Sequence record: PP944860.1
From: Escherichia phage AN_ECEAS
DNA length: 48,081 nt
Reading direction: 5' to 3' (one strand)
Below, one piece after another: positions 7,204 through 46,553 of the stretch; the first letter of the stretch is position 1, and every line of letters begins with the position of its first letter. The notes under the pieces are model-generated. The model did not search any database. It worked only from the letters and a program-made list of their open reading frames with translations, and had not been told where the DNA came from. The translations under genes and the position numbers were made by a program.

Positions 7204-7222
7204 ATAGCACTTTTTGTTAAAG
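7204..7222 (+). promoter_or_regulatory. dyad-motif promoter element ATAGCACTTTTTGTTAAAG
   Basis: TAGCA-N5-TGTTA; TATAGT 7242-7247; CATCGAAA start region; 27-nt leader to ATG 7281. Confidence 0.6.
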
Positions 7223-7280
7223 GCTAAGTCGCGGATTGCTGTATAGTTCATTCATCGAAAAGAAATGAGAGATTAATGAA

Positions 7281-7529
7281 ATGAACAACGTAAAAAACAT
7301 CATCAAACTTGCCGCTGCTCTTGGTGCTTTCTACCTGGCAATTCAGATTGTTAACCCAACTGGTAGCGCAACCGCAAACTCTGATGCAATAAAATATCAG
7401 ACCAAATTCAATAGCGCATATTCATACTGTGAAAAAGTTGCTGGCGATAAAGTTAATCAGATTATGACGCATGGTCGCGAAGTGTGCACCGAAGTTGCTC
7501 ACAACATTGTAAAAAACGAATCAAAGTAA
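7281..7529 (+). CDS. small protein with N-terminal signal/TM segment (moron inside tail module)
   Basis: Hydrophobic N-terminus KLAAALGAFYLAIQIV; own dyad-motif promoter at 7204-7222 placed right after a terminator. Confidence 0.5.
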   Translation: MNNVKNIIKLAAALGAFYLAIQIVNPTGSATANSDAIKYQTKFNSAYSYCEKVAGDKVNQIMTHGREVCTEVAHNIVKNESK

Positions 7530-7564
7530 TATAATAATTCAACATAAACAAAGGAGATAACGAG

Positions 7565-7879
7565 ATGGCAAAATTTAAACTTTCACTAAAGGCGCTGCCT
7601 GACTTTAAACTTCCAGTTAAGTTTCAGCTTGCGAATGGTGAAGATGCGGAAGTGGTACTGACGGTTAAGCACAAGAAATCATCCGAGTTGCAGGAGATTC
7701 TTAATCGTGAGAACTTCAGTACTAAAGAATTGATTAACGAAATCTGCTCTGATTGGGATTTAGAAGAGCCATTTAACGATGAGAACGTAGATGAGTTCAC
7801 CAACCTTTTTCCGGGCGCTGTGCCATCGTTGATGGATAGCTACATGAAAGCTCTGGCAGGTCAGCGAGTAAAAAACTAA
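7565..7879 (+). CDS. tail assembly chaperone (G-like)
   Basis: Small ORF immediately upstream of tape measure; ends in slippery heptamer A_AAA_AAC. Confidence 0.6.
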   Translation: MAKFKLSLKALPDFKLPVKFQLANGEDAEVVLTVKHKKSSELQEILNRENFSTKELINEICSDWDLEEPFNDENVDEFTNLFPGAVPSLMDSYMKALAGQRVKN

Positions 7880-8193
7880 AACGCGCAGTATACTTACAAT
7901 ACCAGTCACCGCCAACGGATGCTGAACTCGAAGCTATCGGAATGAAACGTTCCGATTATGAAGGTGATGAGCCTGAAGAGTTATACTTCGATGAAACAAT
8001 GATGCAAAGCTGGGATGTGTACTGTGCCATGTCAACTCAATGGCGAGTAGGGGCTTGCGGTGCCACAGGCCTTGATTATAATTGCCTTCCATTCTTGTTC
8101 AAAGTCTATAAAATAGATGATGACGAAATGGTACTTAACGACATCAGAATACTTGAGGCTAAAGCCTTAGATATGATGAACGCCAAGAAATAG
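7565..8193 (+). CDS. tail assembly chaperone -1 frameshift fusion product (G-T-like); slip at 7870-7876
   Basis: The -1 frame is open from 7840 to 8193 and overlaps the 3' end of the G-like ORF; heptamer AAAAAAC lies in the overlap. Confidence 0.55.
7870..7876 (+). other. programmed -1 ribosomal frameshift slippery heptamer A_AAA_AAC
   Basis: X_XXY_YYZ heptamer in zero frame of 7565..7879, two codons before its stop; -1 frame continues to 8193. Confidence 0.6.
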
Positions 8194-8216
8194 CCATCCT
8201 TCGGGGTGGCTTTTTT
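8193..8216 (+). terminator. rho-independent terminator-like hairpin before tape-measure gene (possibly attenuating)
   Basis: GCCATCC-TTCG-GGGTGGC stem-loop plus T6. Confidence 0.6.
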
Positions 8217-8230
8217 ATTATGGAGACAAC

Positions 8231-13737: not shown

Positions 13738-13787
13738 TTTAGTGTAGAATGGCACAAATGGTCAAAACAAATACGGAGCTATGTGAT

Positions 13788-16700
13788 ATGGCACAAGATA
13801 TTAAGATTTATGGGAGTAAGGGCGGTAGCCAGAAACAGAGACAGCCTGTTGAGCAACCTGACAACCTGGTATCTGTAAACAAGGTTAAAGTACTTTTGGC
13901 GGTAGCGGATGGTGAGGTTGATAGTTCTTTTTCACTTCGTGATTTGTACCTGGCTGATGTTCCCGTTCAGAATGCAGATGGTACTTTAAACTACGAAGGA
14001 GTCACGGCTGAATTTAGGCCGGGAACTCAAGATCAGGATTATATTCCTGGACTTGACGGTGCTAACTCGGAGGTTCAGGTTAGCCGAGAAATCACCAACA
14101 GCACTCCTTACATTATTGCCGTTAACAACAGTCAGCTATCGGCAATTAGGGTTAAGTTGTTTTGGCCAAGACTGATTAGCCAAGAAAGTAATGGCGACCT
14201 TAATGGCACTACGTGCGAGTACGCGATTGACTTATCTGTTGATGGCGCAACTTACACTGAATACACGCGCGGCGTAGCTAATGGCAAGACAACTAGCGGA
14301 TACGACAGAAGTATCAGGGTTAACCTTCCAGCGGAGTTCTCTAGCGCACTGGTAAGGATTCGAAAGATTACGGCAGATTCAGAAAGTTCTACGCTGGTTA
14401 ACGACATGCAAATTACGACCTATCAGGAAGTAATTGATGCTAAATTCCGCTACCCACTTACAGCGCTGGTTTACGTTGAGTTCAGTTCTGACCTCTTCCC
14501 TAACGGAATCCCGACGATTTCAATCAAGAAGAAGTGGAAGTTGATTCGCGTTCCAACTAACTACAACCCAGAGACAAGGACTTACAGCGGAACCTGGAAC
14601 GGCACCTTTAAGATGGCGTATTCCAATAACCCGGCGTGGGTTCTTTACGACTTGGTGACGAATCAGCGTTACGGACTTGACCAGCGAGAGCTTGGCATTA
14701 CTATTGATAAGTGGGGTCTGTATGAGGCGGCGCAATTCTGTGACCAGATGGTTCCAGATGGTAAGGGTGGAGTTGAGCCGCGCTACCTGTGTGATGTTGT
14801 CATTCAGCAGAAAGTTGAAGCATATCAGGTAATCCGTGATATTTGCTCTATCTTCCGTGGGCTGACATTCTATGACGGCGAGCAGATAGGGATTGTTGTC
14901 GATAAGCCGCGTCAACCATCGTACGTATTCACCAATGACAACGTTGTTGATGGATTGTTCAACCGTACATTTGGTAGCGATAAGTCACTTTACACGGTTG
15001 CCAACGTTCAGTTTGATGACGTTGAAAACTCATACCAACAGGATGTTGAGCCAGTATTCGAGTTAGAGGCAACAAGGCGTTTTGGTTACAACCCGGTCGA
15101 CCTTACAGCTATTGGATGTACTCGCAGGAGTGAGGCAAACCGCCGCGGGCGCTGGTTATTAAAGACGAACATTCGCAGCGAGACTATTAGTTTCACTACT
15201 GGTCTGGAAGGTATGATTCCAATGATTGGTGAGGTTATTGCAGTTAATGACCAGGCATGGTCTAGCAACTACACCCTTAACCTTTCTGGTCGTATCGAGT
15301 CAGTAAGTGGGTTGCAAGTTTTTGTGCCATTTAAGATTGATGCTACTGCTGGCGACAGGATTCTAATAAACAAGCCTGATGGAATGCCAGAGTACAGGAC
15401 CATTGCATCTGTATCTGAAGATGGTATGACGCTGCAACTTAATACAGCGTTTAGCTTTACTCCTCAGCCTGACACAGTATTTGCGATTGATAAGGAAAAT
15501 CTTGCTCTTCAGCAATATGTTGTGACCGGGATTCAAAAAGCAGACAGCGATGGAGACGATGCGTTCGGTTACAGCATTACGGCAGTCGAGTACGACCCGA
15601 ATAAATACGACGAAATTGATTACGGCGTAAACATTCAGGATAGGCCATCGTCAATCGTTGAACCTGACACGCTACTTGCCCCAGAAAATGTTCAGGTGAG
15701 CAGCTACAGCAAGGTTGTGCAGGGTTTATCAGTTGAAACAATGGTAATCACCTGGGACAAAGTTCAGTACGCCAAGACTTACACGGTACAGTGGCGTAAG
15801 GAGAACGGAAACTGGATTAACGTACCGCGCACAGCAAACACAGAAGTTGATATTGAAGGTATTTATGCTGGTATTTATCAGGTTCGCGTGAGGGCTGTTT
15901 CTGATACTGAAAACGTATCCGCATGGTCTGACATTGTTTCAGCAAGCCTAACTGGTAAAATTGGAACGCCGTCTGAGCCTACGGTAATCACAGCTTCAGA
16001 TGATGAAATATTCGGCATTAGGGTTAAGTGGGGATTTCCTGAAAACTCAGCCGATACGTCATACACTGAATTGCAGCAAGTAGCCGACAATGGTGATGGT
16101 ACTTACTCACCAGAGAACGCCAGTTTGTTAACGCTAGTTCCTTACCCGGGTTACGAGTATTGGCACACTACATTGCCGGCAGGAAAGGTTATCTGGTACA
16201 GGGCGCGACTGATTGACAAGATTGGTAACGTCTCACCATGGACTGATTTTGTAAGGGGTATGGCAAGCGATGATGTGTCGTCAATCATTGGTGATATTAA
16301 GGTTGATATAGAAAACTCAGATGGGTTCAAGTATCTCCAACAGAATGCCATTGAGTCAAACGGAGCTATTCAGGCGCAAGCGGAATCAATAATTGAGAAC
16401 GCCCTGGCTAATGATGGTGACGTGCGTAGAATGACGAAGGAAAACGGCAAGAGGAAGGCCGAATTTGTTCAGGCTGTGAATCTTATCGCCGATGAAGAAA
16501 GGGCTCGCGTAGAGGCTCTGACGCAGCTTAAAGCGCAGATTGATGATGAGATTGTGGCTTCGTTGACAAGGATTGATACGGCGCTAGCGGAAGAAACGCA
16601 AGCAAGGACCACTGCGGACACTGCTTTATCTGCAAGGCTCGGTGAGAATGAAGCTGCTTTAAATGAGAAGCTGGATACTTACGTTACAGCTGATTCAATT

Positions 16701-17181: not shown

Positions 17182-17205
17182 GGCCCCTTTCGGGGCCTTT
17201 TCTTT
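17182..17205. terminator. terminator between convergent J-like gene and minus-strand gene
   Basis: GGCCCC-TTTC-GGGGCC stem-loop plus T-run. Confidence 0.7.
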
Positions 17206-18167
17206 TAGTAGAAGTTTGGTATGAATGGTAGAGCCATTGATATGTTTGTGTCGAATGGGAATTGGGCTCCCGTCTGCGTTGAGTAGTTCCCTATCACAGT
17301 GCCTGGAACTGCCCTTACGGCACCACCAGACATGCATATTCCCTTGTACCTTAAGTTGTTATACCCTCCAGTAACTCTTGTTGTAGCGCCGCACCTGAGC
17401 AGTGGGAAGAACCCTCCATTTATTGACTGGAAACCGTTAGTCATTTGTATAAAGCCACCAAGCACAAACGGTCGCCTAACGCTGGAAAAGACAATCTGTC
17501 CAGAACTATTAGACATTGTGAGTCCTGGGCCAGCTACTGGAGGGTCATTCCTGAATATCACTAACTGTACGTAAGTACTTGCTGCAACGTCATCTATGCC
17601 GCTGTAGTTTATGTTGCGGCACCAAATTGTATTACCGTCGCTCTCCAGAGAAACGTTTGGGTTATCCCATTTACCAAATGGAATCCCACTGACTGGTAGT
17701 GAGGCGGCGCCGTTAACCTGTATTCCACCAACCCATGCCGCAGACATTAACCGCGAATTGCTTGAAATTGCCAAAAAGTCAGTTGAGTTCTCAACCAGTA
17801 TTCCTGGGCTTGATGAAGACGAGGCTGGGAGTATTTCAAAGCAATTTCCAGCAAAGTCAATTATACGACCTCTTGCGCCATTGAAGTCACTAAGCGTTAT
17901 CCTGCCAGTTCCGTCATTTACCTTCTGGAACCCGTTCATATAATAAACTTCAGGTACAACATCATAAGCGTCAACGTGCACAGCCTTTGTTGGAAGGCAG
18001 AATGCTGTTGATCCTGGGGACATGGTTAAACCAAAATCCCATGATGATGCTGGCGTCGAAAGTCCATTGGTATTTATTGAGCCAGTCACAGCGGGCGCTC
18101 TTAATCCTGCCGTTATTTCCATAGGTGGCCTTCCGTCGTTGAGGTCTATCAATATACCCTGTGGCAT
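17205..18167 (-). CDS. hypothetical protein co-transcribed with lipoprotein (possible tail fibre/receptor-binding accessory)
   Basis: ATG 18167 with RBS AAGGAG; start overlaps lipoprotein stop (TAATG). Confidence 0.4.
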   Translation of the reverse strand: MPQGILIDLNDGRPPMEITAGLRAPAVTGSINTNGLSTPASSWDFGLTMSPGSTAFCLPTKAVHVDAYDVVPEVYYMNGFQKVNDGTGRITLSDFNGARGRIIDFAGNCFEILPASSSSSPGILVENSTDFLAISSNSRLMSAAWVGGIQVNGAASLPVSGIPFGKWDNPNVSLESDGNTIWCRNINYSGIDDVAASTYVQLVIFRNDPPVAGPGLTMSNSSGQIVFSSVRRPFVLGGFIQMTNGFQSINGGFFPLLRCGATTRVTGGYNNLRYKGICMSGGAVRAVPGTVIGNYSTQTGAQFPFDTNISMALPFIPNFY

Positions 18168-18412
18168 TATTTCCACTCCTTAGACCCGTGATCTGCAACT
18201 GAACCGCCATAACCTCCACCAGCCTTGCTCTCAATACCAGCGTAGCGCACATCAACTTCACCAGCCGGTACAATCACGCCACCTTTCCATTTAGCCACGC
18301 ATACACCGTTTGCTTTCGTTGCACACCATCCGTCAGGACGCGGAGCAGAAGAGCAACCCACCATTATGATTGCTGCTGCTGCGATGATTGAAAGTTTGAT
18401 TAAGTTAGTCAT
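18167..18412 (-). CDS. small lipoprotein (Cor-like superinfection-exclusion candidate)
   Basis: N-terminus [20 protein letters not shown] with lipobox-like MVGC; RBS AAGGAA; own dyad-motif promoter. Confidence 0.6.
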
Positions 18413-18473
18413 TTTCGTATTCCTTGTGAGGTTCGTTTCGATGGAGTAATCATACATCATCTATAATCTTTGT

Positions 18474-19155: not shown

Positions 19156-20127
19156 ATGACATTCAAAGTTTATTTAAATAACGAACTTAGCAACGAAGCC
19201 TATCACGAAGAGCAGGACCACATCTCTGGCTCTTCACTGGCTGAGATTCTTGCTACCTCACCAGCTAAATGGAAGTTTAAGCAGCGCAATAACTCTAGCG
19301 CAGCACTTAAGTTTGGCACACTAAGTCACTGCATGATGCTAGAGCGCGAGGTGTTTGACTCAACATACATGCGAGCTACTGACTTTGACGAAGTGGAAGG
19401 ATTGATTACTAGCCAAACGGCTTTATCCGCAGCGCTTAAAAAAGTTGGAGTTTCAGGCACGTCAGGGAAGGGTTATAACGAGCTTGTAGAGATGATGTAT
19501 AAGTGTGGTGAGGATTGGCCTGTTAAATGGTTAATTGAGCAGCAGGAGAGCGCTCATGCGCTAATTAGTGGCAAAGAGCTAGTTGCTGCGAAAGATTACG
19601 ATAAAGTAATTCAAATGCGAGAGGTTCTAACTAATATTCCGGCATATGATTCGGTAATTAATTCACCATCAGCGCAGAAAGAACTATCAATATTTGGTGA
19701 GATTCTCGGTTGTGGTGTTAAGGTTCGTCTTGACCATGTGGATGTTGTTGATGGTATTGTCTACATTACTGACTATAAAACTACGTCAGACGCAAGCCCG
19801 AGGGGGTTTGGGAAGTCAGCTTATGACCATGGATACCTGTGCAAGATGGCACTTCAGCGAGATCTGTTTGTGAAAGCCTTTAATGAGAAACGTAAGGTTG
19901 TAGTTCGCCTTCTGGCGCAGGAGAAAACAGAGCCTTACTTACCAATGAGCTACACTCTTACGGATGAACAGCTTAGAATTGGACGTTTACAATATTGTGA
20001 GGCACTGTCAATTTACAAGAATTGCAAGGAAACAAACATGTGGCCCGGATACTCAAACGGAGCAACGGAACAGGAGTTAATGATACCTGAATGGGTAATT
20101 AACAGTTATAAGGATATTATAAAGTGA
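19156..20127 (+). CDS. putative PD-(D/E)XK-family exonuclease (recombination partner of ERF)
   Basis: Motif ITDYKT consistent with D-x-K nuclease core; position upstream of ERF/SSB. Confidence 0.45.
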   Translation: MTFKVYLNNELSNEAYHEEQDHISGSSLAEILATSPAKWKFKQRNNSSAALKFGTLSHCMMLEREVFDSTYMRATDFDEVEGLITSQTALSAALKKVGVSGTSGKGYNELVEMMYKCGEDWPVKWLIEQQESAHALISGKELVAAKDYDKVIQMREVLTNIPAYDSVINSPSAQKELSIFGEILGCGVKVRLDHVDVVDGIVYITDYKTTSDASPRGFGKSAYDHGYLCKMALQRDLFVKAFNEKRKVVVRLLAQEKTEPYLPMSYTLTDEQLRIGRLQYCEALSIYKNCKETNMWPGYSNGATEQELMIPEWVINSYKDIIK

Positions 20128-20608
20128 TTGATAAATTTAATGATATCTTTAGATATGATGGTGAAAAGCTGTACTATAAAAACTGGGTAAACGGTAGAAG
20201 TAAGTCTCTTGGACTAGAGGCTGGTAGCAAACAGAATGGTTACTTGAAAGTTACAATTGGCGGCAGAAATTATAAAGTTCATAGAATTATATGGGAAATG
20301 GTTAATGGTGAAATACCTGATGGAATGGAATAGATCACATAAATCACGTAAAGGATGATAATAGGATTGAGAATCTAAGGCTGGTAACTCACAAGGAAAA
20401 CTCAAGAAATAGGAAAAAGAGGTCAGATAACTCTTCAGCAACACAGGGCGTTTCTCTGCATAAGATTACAAGGAAGTGGCAATCTTATTGCTCTGATAAT
20501 GATGGAAAAATTATGTACCTTGGATTATTTGAGGATATTAATGATGCTATTGATGCTAGGGTTAAGTTCGCCTCACAATGTGACTTCCATGAGAATCATG
20601 GTAAATAG
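20124..20608 (+). pseudogene. HNH homing endonuclease, frameshifted (N-terminal part in frame 0 to 20333, HNH core in -1 frame 20321-20608)
   Basis: Frame 0 ends ...IPDGME*; -1 frame continues IDHINHVKDDNRIENLRLV..., matching the intact paralogue at 36850..37347. Confidence 0.5.
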
Positions 20609-24414: not shown

Positions 24415-24438
24415 TTGATTGTAGCATCTTTGAGTCAT

Positions 24439-25383: not shown

Positions 25384-25441
25384 ATCAATCTACCTCTTAA
25401 CAAATAAAAAAGGATGTACCGATTATGGCACATCCAATCCT

Positions 25442-25915
25442 TTACTCTTTAGCTTTTCGTGCTGCTTCGTTAGCGGCCTTAATCTTGCGCCATGATCGAC
25501 ACTCTGGCTTGGTGGCTAGCTCTGCTTCAGTAACTACGCGAAGCATATGACGCTTCTTACATCGAAGTGTTAGCGGCTTACCGTTTCCGTCGAATTGCAG
25601 GTCTGGTCGGCAGAACGTAGCTCGAAATCCTTCCTTATTTCTCTTATACGCATTGTGAGCTTTCTGCGCTCCTCGAGCCGAAATCATCCCGCGATCAAAC
25701 CATTGCTCTACAGTCTGGTGAGATACGTTTAACTGCTTTGCGATGTTCGCCTTTGTTCCATAGAAATCAAGAACCATCTCCAGGCGAGCACGTAGCCCAG
25801 CCTTTACCTCATCTTTCAATACGTAGTAGCCTGACGGTCGTTTGCGTTGCTTCTTGTCTTGTGTGCGTACCGTTCCGTTATTGCCGTTAATAGTTCGTTT
25901 GTCAATTTCACACAT
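25442..25915 (-). CDS. HTH DNA-binding protein (candidate transcription regulator)
   Basis: Basic protein with HTH-like segment IAKQLNVSHQTVEQWF; its RBS region abuts dyad motif 25928-25946. Confidence 0.4.
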   Translation of the reverse strand: MCEIDKRTINGNNGTVRTQDKKQRKRPSGYYVLKDEVKAGLRARLEMVLDFYGTKANIAKQLNVSHQTVEQWFDRGMISARGAQKAHNAYKRNKEGFRATFCRPDLQFDGNGKPLTLRCKKRHMLRVVTEAELATKPECRSWRKIKAANEAARKAKE

Positions 25916-25946: not shown

Positions 25947-26011
25947 AATAGGTTCGATAATTGATATTATACAGCAATGCAACGAACTAACAAACTGTCA
26001 GGATACTTAAA

Positions 26012-29000
26012 ATGCTTCCAGTAGAGCGCTTAGTGGCAAACTTTGATCAAGAGAAAATCAAACAGATTCAGAAAGATTACCAGTTTGGAGACATAACTCC
26101 TTACGAATTCCAGTGTGTAACATTTGACGCAATTGGTAAGGCTATTGGTAAGTACGAGGCTCCATTCATCGCAGACCTGTCTGTATCTGCTGGTAAAACA
26201 ATAATTCTTGCCATGATTGGGAAAAGAATGGAGCAACTTGGACTTCCTTATATGGTACTGTCTCGCCAGTCAGAGATTATCAGCCAGAACGCAGAGGAAC
26301 TCCGTAACTTCGGTATCCGTAATAGCGTCTATTGCGCTGGACTTAACGTTAAATCAGTTTACTACCCAACCATAGTGGCTAGTGAGGGTACAGCTGCCAA
26401 TGGCCTGTTTAAGGGGCTTGGTGACTATGTTCCTGCTGTTATCGCGATAGATGAGTGCTTAACTGGAGACACGATGATAACCACCGATTCAGGGATGATG
26501 AGGATTGATAGCGAAGACCTTATCAATCATAAAATAAAATGCATAAACGAAAGCACTGGTGATTACTTCTATCATAAGCCAAAAAGAGTTTTTACTAATG
26601 GTGTAAGACATGTATCATCAATTAAATTAGAAAGCGGAGAGGAAATAAAATGCACGAGTACACACAAACTTTATTCGAACGGCTGCTGGGTAGGAGCGGG
26701 AAAACTTCGTATTGGGATGAATCTGTCGCTAGACGGCTCGCAGGACAAATTTACGAAAAAGCTCCTGCGTGCAAGTGTGGCTGTGGTGAAAAAGTTATGC
26801 CGCATTCAAGCAAGGGGTTAGGCGTACTTCTTAAGAACCCTTTCGATTTCTATTTGGATTACAGAACGGGGCATCATAATTCAACCGTCAACCCATCAAT
26901 GGAGGTTGATGACTTTTTACATCAAAACATTCTTGCGGCAATGGCTGGTGATGGTTGCTTGATTAAAAATACAGAAAAAGGAACGCATAGGCTATCTTGG
27001 AATATGGGAAATAAGGAGCACGCACTAAGCAAGGTTGAAAGGTTTGCAAAACTAAACCCTAGATACAGGGAGAAGAAAAACCCTGGATTTGGCGACAACT
27101 GGTTTTGCGTATCAACATCATGTACGAAAGTTCTGGATTCATATGCTGATAAGTACGGAAATTCTAAGGATGGTTACGATATTGGAAAGATATGCAGAGA
27201 GCTTGATCCAGTTGGTTGGGCTGCTTACTTTGGTGATGATGGTCATTGCACTGTAAGCTCAGGGAAGAGGGTTGTAGAAATCCACACCGAATCATTTAGC
27301 AGGCGTGAAGTTCAATCAGTAGTTGATGCGCTAATAGCATTTATTGCTAATGACGGAGTTAATGTTAGAAGCTATATTGGCGGCAAGAAAAAGAGAGAGC
27401 TTTACTCAGTATCAATAACAACGAGGTCGGCACAAGATGAGTTTTTTAAGAGAATTAGTAAGCACATGGAAAATGGCGTGGAATACAAAATCAAGCAAAA
27501 TTAAAGACATCTCACCCATTGGCAAGGAACTTGTTTGGGATATAGAGATGCCTGAGCACCATAATTTCATTGCTGACGGGGTCGTGGCACATAATTGCCA
27601 CATGGTGGACCATATGGATATCGTAGAAGCTGAAGAGAATGAGGAAACATTCGAGCAGATGAGCACGAAGAAGGGTGAGATGGTCTTTAAGGATGGTGTG
27701 AATACCGGGCTTCTTGGCACTGGTCGCGCGCAATACACGTTAATCATTACCGAAATGAAGCGTCGATGCAAGGAGAAGTACGGTCGCGAACTTCGTATCT
27801 TTGGGTTAACTGGTAGCCCGTACCGTAACAACGACCACATTGTAGTTAGTAACCCAAATGTCCGTGGATTCTGGCGCAAAACTGTAATGCAAGTGCCAAC
27901 CAGCTACCTTGTTGACTTGGGGTTCGTTGTTCCTACTGTCTACGGTGAAGTTGGTGATTTGGGCTACGACCTTAGTGAGTTCACTCCTGATGGAAGTGAT
28001 GGGGTTAAGGACTTCAGCAAGAAAGAAATGGATGCGATGGCTGCAAAGATTCACGAAAACCAAACGATGACACAAAAGATAATGGGATTTGCTGCTAGGT
28101 TTATGGAAACAAGGAATGCTGCATTGGTAACTTGCGCTGGCAAACAGCATTGCGAGGAGGCGGCAGCCGCACTTCCAGAAGGTGTTACTTGGGCGATAGT
28201 TACCAACTCCACTGGTGATAAGAAGCGTAGAGAGATACTTGAGAAGGCAGCCAGCGGAGAATATAAGTTCATATTTCAGATTGGTTGCCTCACAACTGGC
28301 GTAAACTGCCCCCCGTGGGATACAAGCATTATCCTGAGGAAGGTTGGTAGCATTACTCTACTCATTCAGTTGCTTGGTCGTGGTATGCGTATCCTTAAGA
28401 AGAAGCACAAAGAAGCTGGAATGGTAAAAGATGACCATGTTGTTCTTGATTTTGCCGGGACGCTTGACGATATGGCAGAACTCTACTTCGACCCAATTAT
28501 AGAAGAGGTTCAGGACCAGAAGTTTAAGTCATCCAGGAAAGGGGGTGATGAACCAAGAATTTGCCCAGCATGTTCTTATGAGAATTCTCCTTTCGCACGG
28601 CGCTGTAATAATGTGATTGACGGTAAACGATGCGAGCATTTTTTTCAGTTCCGTCTTTGCGAAGATATTGAGGACCCGCAGACGAAAGTTATCGTTAAGA
28701 AAGGTTGCGGAGAGAAAAATGACGTTGCAGCAAAGAACTGCCGCTGCTGCGGAGAGATGCTGATAGACCCAAATGCAAAGCTATCTGGAAAAATGTATCG
28801 GAAAGGGGACTGGTTGAGAGTTTATGACTTCAAGATTGGGTTGACAAAAAACCAGTCAGGGATCGTTGCTTCATATGAGGTAATGGCTCATAGTGGAGAT
28901 AAGTTCCGAGCTTATGAAACATTCTTCCCGGAGTCAGACCATCGTGTTTGTTCTGTCAAATGGAAGGCGTTTTGCTCAACTCACATCGAGAACAGGACTG

Positions 29001-29146
29001 AGGCTTTTAGGATTGGCAGATTGCGTAATGCTAAAATGATTATGACAAATGCACATCTTTTCCGTGCGCCGCTAAGGATTACGCACCGCAAGAATCAGAA
29101 GTCGCAAGATATTATCGCCAACAAATCATTTACGATGGAGGATTGA
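26012..29146 (+). CDS. SF2 DNA helicase interrupted by an intein in motif II (exteins 26012-26455 and 27596-29146)
   Basis: Walker A SVSAGKT; DE|CH box restored on splicing; motif VI QLLGRGMR; C-terminal zinc ribbons; reading frame is not continuous through the intein. Confidence 0.7.
26456..27595 (+). mobile_element. intein with LAGLIDADG homing-endonuclease domain (endonuclease domain in a different frame)
   Basis: N-terminal CLTGDT and block B TSTH; C-terminal ...HNFIADGVVAHN followed by Cys; two LAGLIDADG-like motifs ILAAMAGDGCL and WAAYFGDDGHC in ORF 26650..27504. Confidence 0.75.
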
Positions 29147-31165: not shown

Positions 31166-32299
31166 ATGGCAGCATCAAAGATTACAAATGAACAGCTTAT
31201 CGAAGAGCTGAAAAGCGGCCTGACTAACAAGGCAATTGCAGAGAAGTACGGCATGAATATTCGCAACGTTGAGCTTCGTCGCAGTAAGTTGGCTAAGAGT
31301 GGTATTGGGCATGGTAATGAAGGTATCAAGAAGCTAGTTCCTGACGGTTATTTAGTCAAGGGCACCTCAACAATGATTGATGCGGAAGGGAATGAGAAGC
31401 TGCGTTGGGTTAAGACTTCGATTGATGCTGAGAAGCAAGAAGAGATGCTTCAGCAGATTGTTAAGGCTCTTACAGACGAGGTTCCTCGCGAGACTCCAAA
31501 GCCACTCAGTGAATCAAGCTATGAAGATACATTGAGTCTCTACCCTGTATTTGATATGCACATTGGCGCAATGGCTCACCATGCAGAGTGTGGGGAGAAC
31601 TACAGTACAGAAATTGCAGAGCGAGTGCTTAACCAATACTTTGATTATGCAGTTGCTAAGGCCCCGAATTCATCAAAAGCCGTATTACTGATTGGTGGAG
31701 ACTTCCTTCACTCGGATGGAATGGAAGCTGTAACTCCAACCAGCAAGCACGTACTTGATCAAGATAGCCGTTATCATAAACTTGTCTACGTAGCTGTTCG
31801 TGCAACTCGCCGCGCCGTCAGTAAGATGCTTGACAAGCATAAAGAGGTTGAGGTTCAGATTATACCAGGCAACCACGACCTTTCTGGGATGATTTGGCTT
31901 CGAGCTGCAATGGCTGCCTTCTACATGGATGAGCCTCGTGTAAATGTTGATGCCTCACCAGCCGCTCTTCACGTGACGGAGTTTGGTAAAACATTGTTGG
32001 GTTACTGCCATGGTCATGAATTGCGAAAGCCTGACACTCGTCTTTCAACTCTTGCGCGCGACCATCGCAAAGCATTTGGTAATGCTGAATACGTTTATAC
32101 ACATAGTGGCCATTATCATCATCAGACGGTTACTGAGGGTAATCTTGGAATTGATGAGTCACACGGTCAGTTGGGTGCTAAAGATGCGTACAGCGCAAAC
32201 GGAGGGTATCGCTCTTATCGTCAGGCCTCAGTAATTATCTATAGCTCAGAGTACGGTGAAGTTGGTCGATTCACTTGCCGACCTGAAATGTTTAAGTAA
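31166..32299 (+). CDS. HTH domain fused to calcineurin-like metallophosphoesterase
   Basis: N-terminal LTNKAIAEKYGMNIRNVELRRSKL; phosphoesterase motifs DMH, GGDFLHSD, GNHD, GHE, GHYHH. Confidence 0.55.
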   Translation: MAASKITNEQLIEELKSGLTNKAIAEKYGMNIRNVELRRSKLAKSGIGHGNEGIKKLVPDGYLVKGTSTMIDAEGNEKLRWVKTSIDAEKQEEMLQQIVKALTDEVPRETPKPLSESSYEDTLSLYPVFDMHIGAMAHHAECGENYSTEIAERVLNQYFDYAVAKAPNSSKAVLLIGGDFLHSDGMEAVTPTSKHVLDQDSRYHKLVYVAVRATRRAVSKMLDKHKEVEVQIIPGNHDLSGMIWLRAAMAAFYMDEPRVNVDASPAALHVTEFGKTLLGYCHGHELRKPDTRLSTLARDHRKAFGNAEYVYTHSGHYHHQTVTEGNLGIDESHGQLGAKDAYSANGGYRSYRQASVIIYSSEYGEVGRFTCRPEMFK

Positions 32300-36834: not shown

Positions 36835-36853
36835 CATTATCAATTTGTGCTAT
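36835..36853 (-). promoter_or_regulatory. dyad-motif promoter element, variant ATAGCACAAATTGATAATG (minus strand)
   Basis: TATAAT follows 22 nt after the TTGATA arm; upstream of 35196..36779. Confidence 0.5.
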
Positions 36854-37347
36854 TTGCCATGATTTGGGTGATAACCCAGCCTCACCTCTGCAACAATTCT
36901 TGCCTCACATGCAGAGATAAAGTCATCAAAAAAACCAAGGTGAACAGTCTTTCCACCACTCTGTATTGAGGCCCTCCACTTACCTGTTCTTTTGTATATG
37001 GCGACTCCAGTTACACCACTTTTATTATCAAACCTTAATGATGAGTTCATTGAATTCACTTTTTGGGTAACAAGCCTTAGATTTTCAATCCTATTGTCAC
37101 GCCTATTTCCATTTATGTGGTCTATGAATAGACAATCAGGTATGTCTCCATTAGTCATCTCCCATATAATTCTGTGAGCCATTGTGTAGCCGATTCCCTT
37201 ATTGCTAACCCTAACGTACCCGCTTGTTGTAACCTCCGTGTTAACTGGCTTATTTGCATATTTTGTATTCCAAGATTGAGTTCTATCTGACCTCTCCTTT
37301 CTGTACAAAACTGAATCTTTTATATAAAAAATTTCATTCCAGTTCAT
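36850..37347 (-). CDS. HNH homing endonuclease
   Basis: Motif IDHINGNRRDNRIENLRLV plus C-terminal AP2-like region; ATG 37347 overlaps upstream stop. Confidence 0.65.
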   Translation of the reverse strand: MNWNEIFYIKDSVLYRKERSDRTQSWNTKYANKPVNTEVTTSGYVRVSNKGIGYTMAHRIIWEMTNGDIPDCLFIDHINGNRRDNRIENLRLVTQKVNSMNSSLRFDNKSGVTGVAIYKRTGKWRASIQSGGKTVHLGFFDDFISACEARIVAEVRLGYHPNHGK

Positions 37348-37730
37348 GAGTATTTTGCTTCCATTTTGTATGTGCCACACAATGTTTTAAAGCCAACGTC
37401 ATCCCTGTACAGCTGCCATGCAAAGCCACCCTCATCATAGATGTACCCCGCTTGCTGGCCCAGTCCAGAGTGAAGGTTTACGATATATCTCTTGCCTTCT
37501 TTGAAGTCTTTCTTAACTCCTGACTTATGGTTAACATTAGTGCAGTAAAGCGTCTTCGTCTTAATGTATTTCCCACGCTCTTCAAGATTAATCCACTTGC
37601 CATTTTTCTTGATTTGCTCAAATTCAACTTCCTCAGCGACACCGTTAACCCACTGGTGAATCTTTTTAACGCGAGCTTTAAACAGTTTGTTATCGTTGCT
37701 AATCCAATTTTTGGTTATCGTAGTAGTCAT
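37344..37730 (-). CDS. hypothetical protein
   Basis: ATG 37730 preceded by RBS GAAGAGAG and a complete dyad-motif promoter. Confidence 0.45.
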   Translation of the reverse strand: MTTTITKNWISNDNKLFKARVKKIHQWVNGVAEEVEFEQIKKNGKWINLEERGKYIKTKTLYCTNVNHKSGVKKDFKEGKRYIVNLHSGLGQQAGYIYDEGGFAWQLYRDDVGFKTLCGTYKMEAKYS

Positions 37731-38428: not shown

Positions 38429-38443
38429 TCGTTGGATTTATCT

Positions 38444-38975: not shown

Positions 38976-39028
38976 CATGATACCATGGTTTCATCTTAAC
39001 GAAGAGCAACCAATCAGGAGTAACGAAT

Positions 39029-39670: not shown

Positions 39671-39732
39671 GCAATAATGCCATGGATGGCATAATTATCT
39701 CATCGAAACGAGAGGCACAAAGGAAAACGAAA

Positions 39733-39921
39733 ATGGCTAAGCGCATCACTAAAGAACTTAAAGTCCTGAATAAAGAAAACGTAATCACCATCCTGACAAT
39801 GTTCGGATACAACGAAGAGTCAGCGATTGCAAAGGTTGAGGCTGGTTACGATGTTGCAGTACGTAGTATGCCGGAAGCAACCTCAAAAGGTATCGCCGAC
39901 TTCCTGGCTACCTGCTACTGA
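39733..39921 (+). CDS. hypothetical protein
   Basis: ATG 39733 with RBS AAAGGAAAA; dyad-motif promoter 39652-39670. Confidence 0.45.
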   Translation: MAKRITKELKVLNKENVITILTMFGYNEESAIAKVEAGYDVAVRSMPEATSKGIADFLATCY

Positions 39922-39976
39922 GTTATCTTACAAGGCATCTCGCGGGGTGCCTCAATAAGACAACTGGAGAAACAGC

Positions 39977-40162
39977 ATGAAAACTAAAATGGTACATAAG
40001 AGCGAAGTTAAGATTGGCGATACTGTTATCCATCGTGGCTATCTTAGAACTGTAAATGCCAACACTTTTAGTAAGGATGAGTTTATGGGACTACTTCTTT
40101 GGGGCGACTCCTACCGGCTTGGGCAGGAGATGGTTGAAGTTATAATTGATGTTAAGTTTTGA
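39977..40162 (+). CDS. hypothetical protein
   Basis: RBS CTGGAGAAA. Confidence 0.45.
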   Translation: MKTKMVHKSEVKIGDTVIHRGYLRTVNANTFSKDEFMGLLLWGDSYRLGQEMVEVIIDVKF

Positions 40163-43892: not shown

Positions 43893-43901
43893 TGATATAA
43901 T
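43893..43901 (+). promoter_or_regulatory. extended -10 promoter candidate TGATATAAT upstream of the TerS gene
   Basis: Exact TGnTATAAT just downstream of terminator 43858-43881. Confidence 0.4.
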
Positions 43902-43928
43902 GCATCTCTAAACAAAGGAGGTAACAAA

Positions 43929-44453
43929 ATGAAAGACGAAAACTTCACCAGTCAGGCGCAGGAAAAGGTCAGCTCTGGCAACTTTAAAGCCATGTACAAT
44001 AAAAAGTACTCAGACATTACAACGCTAGCCAAAAACCGAAGCATGACACCCGAACAGCTATTTGAATTCGCCGTGAAATACTTCTCATGGGCTGAGGACC
44101 AGGCAATCAAGGCAATCGAGACAGCCAGCTTCCAGGGTGTGGTAAAAGAGAGCCTGGTGCACAAACCACGAGTCTTCACGCTAACCGGATTCTGCCTTTA
44201 CTGCGGCGTCACCCATAGCGCCATCGAGAAATGGAGGAAGTCGGCTGGTTACGATGAGGTGATGGCATTCATTGATTCCGTGATTCGCGAGCAAAAGTAC
44301 CAGTTAGCAGCGTCCGGCATCATTAACCCTGGCATGATTTCTAAAGAGCTCGGTATCGACAAGCCGCAGGAGATTAACATCACCAGCACATCTTCAGCCA
44401 ACGACGTCGATACGATGAAAGAGGCGCTCGAATCGGTTATTAGCAAGTTGTAG
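43929..44453 (+). CDS. putative terminase small subunit
   Basis: 174 aa, RBS AAGGAGG, immediately upstream of HNH and TerL. Confidence 0.5.
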   Translation: MKDENFTSQAQEKVSSGNFKAMYNKKYSDITTLAKNRSMTPEQLFEFAVKYFSWAEDQAIKAIETASFQGVVKESLVHKPRVFTLTGFCLYCGVTHSAIEKWRKSAGYDEVMAFIDSVIREQKYQLAASGIINPGMISKELGIDKPQEINITSTSSANDVDTMKEALESVISKL

Positions 44454-44468
44454 CACTTTTTGTTAAAA
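44450..44468 (+). promoter_or_regulatory. dyad-motif promoter element GTAGCACTTTTTGTTAAAA
   Basis: GATAAT hexamer downstream; upstream of HNH gene 44521. Confidence 0.5.
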
Positions 44469-44520
44469 ATAGCGAACCAATCAGTGGGATAATGGGTCAC
44501 TAAATAAACAAGGAGAATAT

Positions 44521-44997
44521 ATGGATTGGGGTGATTTCTTCTATCTTAGTGATGATTCCGTTTCTGGTATAAAGTGGAAGGTTAATAAGGGTCGGTCAAT
44601 GGCTGGTGACGACGCTTTAACATCTGTTGGTAATGGATATTACAAAGGCAGACTCAACCAGAAGACAACGTACGCCCACAGGGTCGTTTACTTTCTTAAC
44701 TATGGCGTAATCCCTGATGTTATAGATCATATGGATGGTAATGGGCTTAACAACTCAATAGAAAACCTAAGGGATGGCACCACAGCCAAGAATATGCAAA
44801 ACAAGCTATGTAAGGGTTACAGCTACAATAAGAGGGATGACGTTTATTATGCTCAGGTAACTACAAATGGGGTGACTAAACATGTAGGTTCTTTTGCAAG
44901 CAAGGAATTGGCTATTGCTGCTTACCTAAAGGAGAAGGAATTGCAGCATGATTTCTATAACAAAGAGAGGAAGATATGCTTGTTTGGGAAAGTATGA
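44521..44997 (+). CDS. HNH homing endonuclease (terminase-associated position)
   Basis: Motif VIDHMDGNGLNNSIENLR plus AP2-like C-terminus; RBS AAGGAGAA; overlaps TerL start. Confidence 0.65.
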   Translation: MDWGDFFYLSDDSVSGIKWKVNKGRSMAGDDALTSVGNGYYKGRLNQKTTYAHRVVYFLNYGVIPDVIDHMDGNGLNNSIENLRDGTTAKNMQNKLCKGYSYNKRDDVYYAQVTTNGVTKHVGSFASKELAIAAYLKEKELQHDFYNKERKICLFGKV

Positions 44998-46538
44998 GCC
45001 AGCAGGAAAAGCTGGCTGTAAAACTTATATCAGAGAATAGTTTTGAGGGATTTTTAAGGTGCTGGTTTTCCATTACTCAGGGTGAGAGATACATCCCTAA
45101 CTGGCACCACAAGTATCTTTGCAGAATCATCGATGAGATTATCGCAGGTGAGCGTAAGGACACAATCATCAACATAGCACCCGGGAGTGGGAAGACAGAG
45201 ATAGCATCAATTCACTTCCCAGCCTACTCCATGGTTAAGTTGAAGAAGGTAAGGAACCTTAACATCTCGTTTGCCGACTCACTTGTTAAGCGTAACTCTA
45301 AGCGAGTGCGTGACCTGATTAAGTCGGTTGAGTTCCAGGAGTTGTGGCCCTGCAAGTTTGGCACATGTAAGGATGATGAGCTACAGATTCTGGATGAGTC
45401 TGGTAAGGTTCGGTTTGAGTCAATATCTAAGGCTGCTGGAGGCCAAATAACCGGCGCAAGGGGTGGATATATAACGGATTCATATAGCGGAGCGGTTCTG
45501 TTAGATGATTTTGACAAACCAGCCGACATGCTTTCTGCTGTTTTTCGCGCTAACAATCACGTGATGCTAAAGAATACAATACGCTCTCGTAGGGCGAGCT
45601 CCGTAAAAGGAAAGGCGACGCCGATTATCTCTATCCAACAGCGCCTTCATGTGAATGATAGTACGTGGTTCATGATGAATGGCGGTATGGGTATTAGCTT
45701 CGACTTGATTAAGATACCGGCGCTCGTAACTGAGGATTACGTCGAAACGCTTCCTGACTGGATTAAGCAGCAATTCATTGATGACGTTCTATCAAGCGAA
45801 TATATTGAGCGTGATGGTGTTAGGTACTATAGCTATTTCCCTGGCAAGGAATCTGTTCACGACCTAGTTGCAATGTGGGATTCTGATAGCTATACATTCC
45901 TTAGCCAGTATCAGCAAGAACCAGTAGCACTTGGCGGCAACCTGATTAACGTAGACTGGCTTCAACGCATTAGCGACACTCTGCGACCGCCAGCTAAGTA
46001 CGATTACAGGTTTATGGTCCTTGATACTGCGATGACAACCAAAAGTTACAGCGACTTTAGTGTCATGCAGCTATGGGGTTATAAGGATGGGAAGATTTAT
46101 CTGCTTGACCAGCGGCGCGGTAAATTTGAAGCTCCTGAGCTCGAGGCTGAGTTATTGAATTTCGAGAAGATGGCTAGGGCATCCAATCAGATAGATGGCA
46201 TCCTTCGTAAAATCATCATCGAGAAGAAAGCCTCTGGTATTGGCCTGATTCAATCAGCCGGAAGGGTTATGCGAACGCCTATCGAGCCGTACGTTCCTGA
46301 TAACGATAAGCTGACTCGCGTAATGAGTGCATTGCCGCAGATTAAAGCTGGTAACGTAATCCTTCCGGAGTCTGCTACTTGGCTTAATGGCTTGCTAACG
46401 GAGATTGCGGCATTCACGGCAGATGATTCACATGTTCACGATGACCAGATAGACTGTTTGACAATGGCTGTCAACCTGGTACTGAACATTGCAGAAGACC
46501 CTAAATCGAGGATGATGCGCCTCGCTGGCATCAAATAG
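44976..46538 (+). CDS. terminase large subunit
   Basis: Walker A IAPGSGKT, Walker B VLLDD, C-terminal nuclease acidic motifs; RBS AGAGAGGAAG. Confidence 0.8.
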   Translation: MLVWESMSQQEKLAVKLISENSFEGFLRCWFSITQGERYIPNWHHKYLCRIIDEIIAGERKDTIINIAPGSGKTEIASIHFPAYSMVKLKKVRNLNISFADSLVKRNSKRVRDLIKSVEFQELWPCKFGTCKDDELQILDESGKVRFESISKAAGGQITGARGGYITDSYSGAVLLDDFDKPADMLSAVFRANNHVMLKNTIRSRRASSVKGKATPIISIQQRLHVNDSTWFMMNGGMGISFDLIKIPALVTEDYVETLPDWIKQQFIDDVLSSEYIERDGVRYYSYFPGKESVHDLVAMWDSDSYTFLSQYQQEPVALGGNLINVDWLQRISDTLRPPAKYDYRFMVLDTAMTTKSYSDFSVMQLWGYKDGKIYLLDQRRGKFEAPELEAELLNFEKMARASNQIDGILRKIIIEKKASGIGLIQSAGRVMRTPIEPYVPDNDKLTRVMSALPQIKAGNVILPESATWLNGLLTEIAAFTADDSHVHDDQIDCLTMAVNLVLNIAEDPKSRMMRLAGIK

Positions 46539-46553
46539 CACGTTTTGCTAAAG
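46535..46553 (+). promoter_or_regulatory. dyad-motif promoter element ATAGCACGTTTTGCTAAAG
   Basis: Overlaps TerL stop; TATAGT 46574-46579; upstream of moron 46608. Confidence 0.55.

Follow-up and report, generated by a model that had tools for sequence, protein, structure and literature searches.

A Recurrent Promoter Element of Escherichia Phage ES Matches the Host Marbox, With Rob, MarA or SoxS as Its Likely Readers

The element that recurs in the genome of Escherichia phage ES (OR466728.1), a virulent, T1/Rtp-like member of the Drexlerviridae, is a marbox by sequence identity, orientation, register and the lack of a −35 hexamer. The promoters that contain it are probably class II marbox promoters read by host Rob, MarA or SoxS. 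Since sequence, direction and position are those of a marbox, nearly all ES promoters appear to be wired to the antibiotic- and stress-response activators of the host. The motif was published before, without explanation, as a 21-nt direct repeat of TLS, T1, Rtp and Rogue1 (PMC11447400, 2024); what appears to be new here is that its consensus fits that of the marbox.

Copies of the Element in ES

In the window (the whole stretch of 48,081 nucleotides that was analysed), TAGCA-N5-TGCTA with at most one mismatch occurs 18 times, compared with 1.99 matches expected and 8 in the largest shuffle. Two of the palindrome matches, 27335 and 36683, lie within genes, show none of the conserved flanks and probably arose by chance. 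A first-pass annotation had listed 18 copies, giving the low coordinate for those on the minus strand, and the oriented 18- to 20-mer ATAGCAC-NNN-TTG-N-TAAA is indeed present at all 18 coordinates. The motif scan that it proposed found copies in ES as well as in related phage genomes, and one copy absent from its list lies before the primase gene (25465..25446, minus strand). Its claim that the orientation follows the downstream gene fails for 24396, which is opposed to both neighbouring genes. The modules are listed below with the box, the distance from box to −10, the −10 sequence and the score in the marbox matrix described in the next section.

7204..7254 (+), putative marbox promoter of the tail-chaperone/tape-measure block (7281..): box 7204-7223 ATAGCACTTTTTGTTAAAGG, 18 bp, TGtATAGT at 7242, predicted +1 7254; 16.5 bits
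18442..18492 (−), putative marbox promoter of 18167..18460 and 17205..18176: box 18492-18473 ATAGCACGAATTGCTAAAGA, 18 bp, TATGAT, +1 about 18442; 17.6 bits
20605..20655 (+), putative marbox promoter, Erf recombinase/SSB: ATAGCAATAATTGCTAAAGA, 18 bp, TATCAT, −10 enclosed by hairpin TGGGGTA/TACCCCA; 15.8 bits
24396..24426 (+), marbox 24396-24415, opposite in direction to the minus-strand genes on either side, no downstream −10; overlaps −4..+16 of the putative minus-strand TGcTACAAT promoter (24426..24418) of the lateral tail-fibre gene; 17.6 bits
25415..25465 (−), putative marbox promoter, primase: box 25465-25446 GCAGCACGAAAAGCTAAAGA, 18 bp, CATAAT within the loop of an intrinsic terminator (25435..25412), +1 about 25415; 15.0 bits
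25928..25977 (+), putative marbox promoter, helicase gene: ATAGCACTTTTTGTTAAACA, 17 bp, TGaTATTAT; faces the canonical minus-strand promoter (TTGTTA-16-TATAAT, 25993..25966) of the Cro-like gene, in whose leader the box sits; 16.5 bits
29564..29614 (+), putative marbox promoter: ATAGCACGAATTGCTAAAGA, 18 bp, TGtATTAT, then CATCGAAAC; 17.6 bits
29818..29868 (+), putative marbox promoter: ATAGCACGAATTGCTAAAGA, 18 bp, TATAGT, then CATCGAAAC; 17.6 bits
32299..32349 (+), weak marbox module ahead of the gene for polynucleotide kinase: ATAGCACTTTTTGTTAATAA, poor −10 CAAAAT, hairpin GCCTCAA/TTGAGGC; 9.2 bits
33386..33436 (+), putative marbox promoter upstream of the lysis block: ATAGCACGAATTGCTAAACA, 18 bp, AATAAT; 17.6 bits
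36803..36853 (−), putative marbox promoter, DUF3987 helicase-like gene: ATAGCACAAATTGATAATGT, 18 bp, TGaTATAAT; 11.0 bits
37761..37811 (−), putative marbox promoter: ATAGCACGAATTGCTAAAGC, then TGtATAGT, terminator hairpin GCCCcttcGGGC+TTTT in the spacer; 17.6 bits
38377..38428 (−), putative marbox promoter: ATAGCACTTTTTGCTAATGA, 19 bp, CATAAT; 10.6 bits
39652..39702 (+), putative marbox promoter: ATAGCACTTTTTGCCTAACG, 18 bp, TGgCATAAT, then CATCGAAAC; 10.1 bits
40163..40213 (+), putative marbox promoter: ATAGCACAAATTGTTAAACC, 18 bp, TGaTATAGT, −10 flanked by hairpin AAGGCCA/TGGCCTT; identical copy in T1 at 3535; 17.2 bits
40839..40889 (+), putative marbox promoter: ATAGCACGAATTGCTAAACA, spacer hairpin GCCGGA/TCCGGC, CATAAT; 17.6 bits
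42185..42235 (+), putative marbox promoter: ACAGCACGAATAGCTAAACA, 18 bp, TATAAT; 16.1 bits
44450..44500 (+), putative marbox promoter with the HNH and large terminase genes downstream: GTAGCACTTTTTGTTAAAAA, 18 bp, TGgGATAAT; 16.5 bits
46535..46586 (+), putative marbox promoter after terL, upstream of head genes: ATAGCACGTTTTGCTAAAGA, 19 bp, TATAGT; 16.7 bits

Match to the Host Marbox

The consensus ATAGCAC-nnW-TT-G-Y-TAAA (logo of 108 sites: A-50 T A G-47 C A C-44 (T/G)(T/A)(T/A) T T G-38 (C/T) T A-35 A A) agrees with the marbox consensus AYnGCACnnWnnRYYAAAY (PMC3709825) at all specified positions except the last. In a matrix built only from 85 Salmonella MarA/SoxS/Rob/RamA ChIP-seq sites (PMC10268841 Table 1), which themselves score a median of 11.3 and a maximum of 18.6 bits, places 1 to 14 in the window are all taken by phage copies (15.8-17.6 bits). 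Scores of at least 16 bits are reached 13 times in the window versus 0.2 times in shuffles, and scores of at least 14 bits 17 times in ES versus twice in T7 and once in lambda; the E. coli micF site reaches 15.1 bits. Class II promoters carry a forward marbox over the −35 region, clustering near −41, and have no recognisable −35 (PMC12052159; PMC10268841). Among them, micF has been solved with Rob and SoxS on RNA polymerase, where Rob contacts −47G and −45A and sigma region 4 is off the −35 (PMC9178005). In an E. coli genome the micF marbox is followed after 18 bp by TAGAAT, with the MicF start 7 nt further, and the phage GCAC at −47..−44 is in the same register.

Like the class II mar/sox/rob(/ramA) promoters of E. 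coli and Salmonella, the phage modules have a 20-bp asymmetric consensus that faces forward and overlaps the position of the absent −35, with GCAC at −47..−44 and the −10 18 bp from the box. By contrast with that regulon, about 18 near-consensus copies would drive almost every ES transcription unit, and the phage boxes, at which we infer binding of the host proteins, are far nearer to the consensus than most chromosomal marboxes. The 21-nt repeats of TLS (aaATAGCACnnnTTGnTAAAA) are the same element with respect to consensus, GAA/TTT/AAA subtypes, orientation and a position about 76 nt before start codons; their function was left open (stoperator, enhancer site or UP element), and the fixed −10 and the marbox match went unreported (PMC11447400).

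The motif had initially been read as a dyad bound by a dimer. However, outside the 5+5 arms the site is asymmetric (A-50/A-34, C-44/T-40, and G-47 at 89% versus Y-37 at 54/37%), and the whole element fits the non-palindromic marbox, which suits a monomeric two-HTH activator of the AraC type and not a dimer; the dyad is incidental. CRP and FNR sites (−41.5) and lambda cI OR2 (−42) likewise abut or overlap the −35 region, but are true palindromes read by dimers, whereas the phage site is asymmetric and oriented. A phage-specific promoter class, as had been suggested, is likewise not supported, the design of the modules being that of the host class II mar/sox/rob promoter. T4 MotA/AsiA and Mu Mor/C promoters, as those of ES, have a −10 without a −35, and they require an upstream box, as those of ES would. 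The T4 MotA box has its centre at −30 and works with the phage proteins AsiA and MotA, while Mor and C of Mu are phage-encoded dimers acting as late activators. Sigma appropriation, which had also been proposed for ES, is not supported in its MotA form, whose geometry does not fit. No MotA/AsiA- or Mor/C-type genes were detectable in ES, and its box matches the host regulon instead.

Promoter Architecture

Across ES, T1, Rtp and TLS, 59 of 82 sites have their best −10-like hexamer exactly 20 nt past the 18-mer, against a baseline of about 4% per position at random places, and in eight genomes an A-11/T-7 hexamer follows 19-21 nt past the motif at 108 of 127 sites. Position −14 is G in 81% of sites, and the predicted start falls in a CATCGAAAC-like sequence (C-1 66%, A+1 70%, then TCGAAA). 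The forward box spans −50..−31, 18 bp from the −10, and takes the place of the −35 hexamer, which is absent. The rigid distance claimed by the first-pass annotation is therefore borne out, with the exception of 24396 (no downstream −10) and 32299 (only the weak CAAAAT). The same applies to the class II position of the upstream element (centre about −41/−42) and to the argument that the 22 bp between TTGCTA and the −10 rule out a −35 role for this hexamer. An independent derivation put the predicted starts at the same positions, 7254, 29868 and 46586. Together, the sequences favour promoter modules read by host sigma-70 RNA polymerase. The early region shows no excess of canonical −35/−10 matches (39 versus 42 expected), and only three canonical promoters were found in TLS by its authors (PMC11447400).

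Proposed Mechanism and Host Reader

On this reading, every copy would supply the upstream half of a class II promoter of the marbox type. A single monomer of an AraC-family activator like MarA, SoxS or Rob would occupy the asymmetric 20-bp box (−50..−31). HTH 1 would bind GCAC (−47..−44) and HTH 2 (Y)TAAA (−36..−33), with a good TATAAT-like −10 placed 18 bp downstream of the box and the start at the A of CATCG. By analogy with E. coli micF, the bound activator is expected to prevent sigma-70 region 4 from occupying the −35 position and to recruit host RNA polymerase by touching the alpha-CTD and sigma region 4. The likeliest reader would be Rob, which is constitutive, or MarA or SoxS, with RamA in the Klebsiella hosts of related phages; binding, activation, start sites and the acting paralogue are all deduced from the sequence. 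When every ORF of 40 aa or more in ES, T1, Rtp, TLS, Vc1 and AAS23 was searched with a profile, no MarA-like ORF emerged, which makes the host proteins the likeliest readers in these six Drexlerviridae. Furthermore, the same architecture is found in seven Drexlerviridae and two Dibbivirus genomes, and the box is identical across phages whose proteins share only 30-55% identity, the pattern that a conserved reader supplied by the host should produce.

The Dibbivirus myoviruses, the only other phages found with marbox-type promoters, encode a 136-aa HTH_18/AraC protein whose best solved relatives are MarA, RamA, Rob and SoxS, and which has no homologue in any Drexlerviridae record. Its residues aligned with the MarA helix-3 contacts W42, Q45 and R46 are C, G and E, so that it is at most a candidate reader of the box.

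Some points count against host readers. T1-like phages multiply rapidly in ordinary broth. Yet without stress, MarA and SoxS are scarce and most Rob sits in inactive clusters (PMC12052159; PMC10268841). To reconcile the two, one has to suppose basal activity from the −10/G-14, some activity of Rob or a further factor. No role of rob, marA or soxS in T1-like phages is known to us, and a literature search turned up none, although redundancy of the three paralogues could mask it.

Alternative Explanations

That a phage protein unrelated to MarA reads the box is unlikely. Of the two regulators initially suggested, 31166..32299 encodes an SbcD-like DNA repair exonuclease (phrog_704, E 7e-150), leaving as lead candidate the Cro-like HTH protein 25442..25915 (T1 gp23 family), which as a dimer on TAGCA-N5-TGCTA at −42 would activate like lambda cI at PRM, the marbox likeness being convergent or coincidental. 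It has a confident Cro-type fold (pLDDT 88; best Foldseek match Xfaso-1 Cro, probability 1.00, E 0.047, with N15 and P22 Cro among the matches) and is one of the few non-structural proteins common to all motif-bearing phages, Dibbivirus included. Its canonical sigma-70 promoter (P57 in TLS) means that it could be made first, the box within its own leader is an autoregulatory layout, and the arms, 10 bp apart centre to centre, form a 5+5 pseudo-dyad that it could in principle bind. However, its recognition helix (residues 66-75) has no invariant residue among 25 homologues, and the exposed positions vary (SHQTVEQW, TPQAVEEW, SNQTVQGW, NLKTVWGW, FSGVRSW) although the DNA box does not vary. In Dibbivirus the counterpart is a 73-aa HTH with only 30-38% identity. 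The asymmetric conserved DNA outside the arms and the single orientation towards the −10 in every copy also argue against a Cro-like dimer, and chance can hardly explain agreement with all marbox positions and with the micF register.

Given G-14 and a good −10, promoters that lack a −35 might need no activator, and the box, A/T-rich at both ends, might boost such extended −10 promoters as a cis element for RNA polymerase, through UP-element-like alpha-CTD contact, an idea raised by the TLS authors (PMC11447400), or as a −35 substitute. This is quite improbable, as the box lies at −50..−31 and not −59..−38, has an invariant core of GCAC and TTG instead of an A/T tract, and places TTGCTA 22 bp from the −10. 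To our knowledge, no part of the polymerase reads GCAC at −47..−44. Rob does (PMC9178005). It is still harder to accept that about 20 strong marboxes per genome copy serve as sinks that titrate MarA/SoxS/Rob and blunt the host stress response, or as stoperator-like blocks as proposed for TLS (PMC11447400): boxes scoring as high as the best chromosomal sites and reversed copies over core promoters would fit, but neither role needs a fixed 18-bp distance to the −10 or a single orientation, and searches of virulent ES detected no repressor or lysogeny module. The arms TAGCA/TGCTA also fit the confirmed Lrp consensus yAGhAwATTwTdCTr (PMC5554404), which TAGCACTTTTTGCTA matches at 13 of 15 positions. 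Host Lrp is nevertheless a highly improbable reader: its site includes neither the invariant C of position 6 nor the conserved flanks (AA upstream, AAA downstream), and the marbox explains more positions as well as the geometry. We know of no fixed class II register for Lrp sites. Equally remote is a processing or stability signal formed by a UAGCA-loop-UGCUA hairpin in read-through transcripts; the TGTTA variant still pairs via G-U and sense-strand hairpins are common just downstream of boxes, but pairs are broken without compensation in the variants 36853, 39652 and 42185, the box also stands on the first promoters of divergent units, and the rigid link to the −10 is a DNA-level feature.

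Reversed Copies

If host activators read the boxes, a reversed copy that covers a core promoter would act as a repressing site instead. At purA, hdeA and rob, MarA represses from a marbox that overlaps the core promoter. Boxes located between −35 and +25 are regarded as potential repressing sites, with the purA/hdeA work cited in support (PMC12052159). As at purA, hdeA, rob and pbpG, the reversed box at 24396 of ES lies inside or just after a sigma-70 core promoter, a position that suggests an operator-like role for the phage counterpart. Reversed boxes also occur in the capsid-promoter spacer of T1, TLS, Vc1 and AAS23, and the 24396 arrangement is kept in Rtp (33762) and T1 (34902).

The repeat and its promoter architecture

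With at most one mismatch, TAGCA-N5-TGCTA occurs 18 times in the window (2.0 expected). Printing every site with its flanks confirmed all 18 positions of the first-pass annotation, and also its order of elements: the oriented box AATAGCAC(GAA/TTT/AAA)TTG(C/T)TAAAG is followed by a -10-like hexamer, a stretch resembling CATCGAAAC, a ribosome site rich in purines, and ATG. An extra copy that had been missed, at 25465 on the minus strand, lies ahead of the primase gene. The palindrome matches at 27335 and 36683 are intragenic and without the flanks, and the copy at 24396 is an exception in that it opposes both adjacent genes and lacks a -10. The motif was known before this analysis: a 2024 re-annotation of phage TLS already describes a 21-nt direct repeat, aaATAGCACnnnTTGnTAAAA, with 21 occurrences along the direction of transcription, ~76 nt ahead of start codons and in AAA, TTT and GAA subtypes; similar repeats are carried by T1, Rtp and Rogue1 (PMC11447400). 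Its authors found just three canonical sigma-70 promoters and left the function of the repeat open, with three guesses: stoperators, enhancer sites and UP elements (PMC11447400).

The phage of the window, Escherichia phage ES (OR466728.1; 48,315 bp), is a T1/Rtp-like virulent siphovirus of the Drexlerviridae/Braunvirinae. Its record is 100% identical to the window over bases 20000-40000, where the record position minus 4360 gives the window position, and the window is nearly its entire genome. It was compared with T1, Rtp, TLS, Vibrio phage Vc1, Pantoea phage AAS23 and Klebsiella phage Sweeny, and with the Dibbivirus myoviruses Pantoea phage AAM37 and Xanthomonas phage DIBBI. A scan of related phage genomes, as proposed in the first-pass annotation, found the motif in the same promoter layout: 127 sites match the 18-mer with at most two mismatches in eight genomes, and in 108 of these an A-11/T-7 hexamer follows after 19-21 nt. 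Of the 82 sites in ES, T1, Rtp and TLS, 59 have their best -10-like hexamer exactly 20 nt past the 18-mer, as against a random-sequence rate of ~4% per position. The logo of the 108 sites, aligned on the -10, places the box at -52..-32 (the 20-bp element itself taken as -50..-31) and gives T83 A100 T77 A58 A69 T100 for the -10, with G-14 in 81%, C-1 in 66% and A+1 in 70%, while -35..-30 reads AAAACT and bears no resemblance to TTGACA. The early region of ES shows no excess of canonical -35/-10 matches (39 vs 42 expected). A literature search found no transcription-start data for Drexlerviridae; the starts predicted from the box promoters are as follows.

Predicted transcription starts (window positions)
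Starts 1-9: 7254, 18442, 20655, 25415, 25977, 29614, 29868, 32349, 33436
Starts 10-18: 36803, 37761, 38377, 39702, 40213, 40889, 42235, 44500, 46586

Identity with the marbox and class II geometry

The marbox, bound by the host stress regulators MarA, SoxS and Rob (and RamA), is a 20-bp, non-palindromic site with the consensus AYnGCACnnWnnRYYAAAYn and the recognition elements GCAC and YAAA (PMC3709825). The 108-site phage logo, ATAGCAC-nnW-TT-G-Y-TAAA, agrees with it at all specified positions but the last. As an independent test, a weight matrix was made from 85 Salmonella MarA/SoxS/Rob/RamA ChIP-seq sites (Table 1, PMC10268841), which themselves score a median of 11.3 and a maximum of 18.6 bits. 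The 14 top matches in the window, at 15.8-17.6 bits, are all motif copies, 13 matches reach at least 16 bits (0.2 in shuffles), and some phage copies are identical letter for letter to bacterial sites (GCACAAATTGCTAAA), so that the ES box conforms to the marbox by logo and matrix alike. With the same matrix and a threshold of 14 bits, each of nine T1-like/Dibbivirus genomes yields 10-24 sites where 0.6-2.7 are expected, and a -10 follows at a distance of 17-19 bp, mostly 18, in 115 of these 143 sites; the phages T7 and lambda have two sites and one site, respectively, at this threshold.

Class II marbox promoters carry a forward box over the -35, clustered near -41, and no recognisable -35 (PMC12052159; PMC10268841). 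Counting 25465 with the 18 listed, ES has 19 boxes, and 18 of them face a -10 located 17-19 bp downstream, mostly 18; the forward box overlaps the -35 position, and a canonical -10 is present without a -35 hexamer. The E. coli class II example micF, taken from an E. coli genome, reads ACAGCACTGAATGTCAAAAC, 18 bp and TAGAAT, with the MicF RNA start 7 nt further; it scores 15.1 bits and was found with the same spacing rule. A cryo-EM structure shows Rob bound to micF together with RNA polymerase: it makes contact with -47G, -45A and the alpha-CTD, and it denies sigma-70 region 4 access to the -35 (PMC9178005). The phage logo has GCAC exactly at -47..-44, with G-47 and A-45 each in 89%, in register with micF. 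Since sequence, orientation, register and the missing -35 are all shared, the phage boxes match a structurally defined class II promoter, which supports the class II reading of the first-pass annotation; its further idea of a phage-specific promoter class finds no support, as consensus, matrix and micF register all identify the box as a marbox. Judged by sequence, the copies are most aptly classed as putative class II marbox promoters, a new set carried by phages.

A further marbox-like sequence (15.6 bits) is located at 13749..13768, at the very beginning of the J-like central tail-fibre gene, and in T1 (25021) and TLS (24908) one lies directly 5' of the J-like tail-fibre start codon; no -10 follows at the right distance.

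Other readings of the box

The element had also been interpreted as a dyad for a dimeric activator. CRP, FNR and cI class II dimer sites are palindromic, whereas the symmetry of the phage box extends to just 5+5 bases: the pairs A-50/A-34, A-51/A-33 and C-44/T-40 are conserved yet not complementary, and G-47 (89%) stands opposite C54/T37 in the logo, so that two-fold symmetry is not supported. A sigma-54 promoter has GG at -24 and GC at -12 at fixed spacing (TGGCAC-N5-TTGC), while the phage TAGCAC-N3-TTGC has AG in place of GG and is two bases too short; compared with the consensus sequences of sigma-32, sigma-28 and sigma-S, the spacings misfit. TTGCTA was rejected as a -35, since it is 22 bp from the -10. 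T4 middle promoters, which need phage MotA and AsiA, have a box 11-13 bp from the -10 and centred at -30; the centre of the ES box is at -40.5, and family searches found no MotA or AsiA gene among the ES proteins.

An UP element would be an A/T-rich tract at -59..-38 read by the alpha-CTD, which fits neither the position of the box nor its invariant GCAC core. The likeness of the motif to the T3 promoter end CTAAAG would fit a single-subunit phage RNA polymerase, but no polymerase gene is present, and the 854-aa ORF of ES is a tail fibre homologue. Depending on subtype, 11-13 of 15 positions agree with the Lrp consensus yAGhAwATTwTdCTr (PMC5554404), which leaves the invariant C6 and the flanks unexplained.

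Candidate readers of the box

The box does not change even where the phage proteins have diverged to 30-55% identity, as would be expected if a conserved host protein read it; we therefore favour host Rob, MarA and SoxS as the probable readers. A literature search, subscription journals aside, found nothing linking marboxes to phage promoters or these regulators to T1-like phages. Unstressed cells contain little MarA or SoxS and keep most of their Rob sequestered (PMC12052159; PMC10268841), so that early expression would need basal -10/G-14 activity, free Rob or a phage factor.

Both phage regulators suggested in the first-pass annotation lack support. The protein of 31166..32299 is an SbcD-like exonuclease. 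For that of 25442..25915 (minus strand), the model is a Cro-type HTH whose N-terminal arm is disordered and invariant; its gene has a canonical promoter to itself, and the protein is among the few non-structural ones common to all motif-bearing phages. Across 25 homologues, however, no residue of the recognition helix is invariant, although the DNA box is constant, and the two do not co-vary. The arm of this family (DKRxINGNNG..R..D..R; model pLDDT 54) and a C-terminal FCRPDLxFDxNGK motif are better conserved than the recognition helix.

A MarA-like profile run against all ORFs of ES, T1, Rtp, TLS, Vc1 and AAS23 found no MarA-like ORF, hhalign against MarA-like sequences gave a probability <1% for the gp10, gp07 and gp23 families, and neither PDB sequence searches nor AlphaFold models with Foldseek revealed a hidden AraC-like protein in ES. 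A conserved 111-aa early protein has a winged-helix-like model without a significant PDB match or AraC-like fold, and the other conserved small early protein is beta-rich by sequence and not AraC-like. A small two-HTH AraC/XylS protein was thus found neither in ES nor in five other Drexlerviridae, but only in Dibbivirus. The Dibbivirus myoviruses AAM37, PSKM and DIBBI share the marbox promoters and a T1-like replication module, and alone among motif-bearing phages encode a 136-aa HTH_18/AraC protein that, among solved structures, is best matched by MarA (E 1.4e-6), RamA, Rob and SoxS.

MarA/RamA-like AraC-family protein (136 aa) in two Dibbivirus genomes
Genome L005: 25910..26320
Genome L008: 36382..36792

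No Drexlerviridae homologue of this protein was found in 50,697 phage records, and it is only suggestive because its helix-3 residues differ from the DNA-contact residues of MarA.

Reversed copies

In ES, the lateral tail-fibre gene has a minus-strand TGcTACAAT promoter whose positions -4..+16 lie within the box at 24396-24415, and the same arrangement is found in Rtp and T1. Four relatives have a canonical sigma-70 promoter (e.g. TTGACG-16-TGcTATTAT) just ahead of the major capsid gene, with its 16-bp spacer and TGnTAT supplied by a marbox in reverse orientation, a copy that ES lacks.

Reversed capsid-promoter boxes
T1: 15062..15089
TLS: ~15024..15044
Vc1: ~5730
AAS23: ~5969

Marboxes over core promoters are counted as repressing sites in the MarA literature (PMC12052159), and from their position the reversed phage copies may repress as well.

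It is conceivable, though rather unlikely, that T1-like phages have handed nearly their whole transcription programme to host MarA/SoxS/Rob/RamA, with reversed boxes holding late genes off. The hold over the capsid and tail-fibre promoters would then end once replicating genomes soak up the activator, acting as a copy-number timer, and phage development would be tuned by bile salts, salicylate and oxidative stress, as well as by the marR, soxR and ramR mutations that make clinical isolates multidrug resistant.

Should Rob, MarA or SoxS drive the promoters, a classical virulent coliphage would depend on the intrinsic antibiotic-resistance regulon. Phage yield would change with inducers (salicylate, paraquat, dipyridyl, bile salts) and with mar/sox/ram up-mutations, triple-deletion hosts would be poor, and T1-like phages, including the anti-Klebsiella Webervirus group, might fare better on efflux-up multidrug-resistant strains, which bears on phage-antibiotic combinations. 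The marbox reading gives the open puzzle of the T1-like repeat a concrete mechanism, testable within days, and the annotation rule of marbox, 18 bp and -10 would serve to locate promoters where standard finders fail, in a large family (>800 Drexlerviridae sequenced).

Hairpins within the promoters

From the box end to just past the predicted +1, the 108 promoters of the eight genomes fold better than shuffles (mean z -2.6), the sense strand better than the antisense in 82 vs 20. Some hairpins are true terminators, located between box and -10 or enclosing the -10; at 25412..25435 (minus strand) GGATGTGCCATAATCGGTACATCC is followed by TTTTTTATTT, with the -10 of the primase promoter in the loop, i.e. 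a promoter within a terminator. A class II spacer needs no particular sequence, and therefore the phage can place the terminator of the upstream unit there; RNA initiated at the promoter itself would lack the 5' arm of the hairpin and would not be terminated.

Annotation of the ES record

The product names of OR466728.1 look scrambled and are unreliable: 61-67-aa ORFs are labelled 'DNA helicase', a 57-aa ORF 'tail tip protein' and the Erf recombinase 'head morphogenesis protein'. The helicase gene is apparently split by an intein (26012..26821 and 27437..29146), with weak Intein_splicing/HINT Pfam matches, under the curated cut-off, in both ORFs. Several HNH homing-endonuclease-like ORFs occur (20124..20333, 36850..37380 and 44521..44997), as they do elsewhere among T1-like phages, and one of this kind has a marbox promoter on one side and the large terminase gene on the other.
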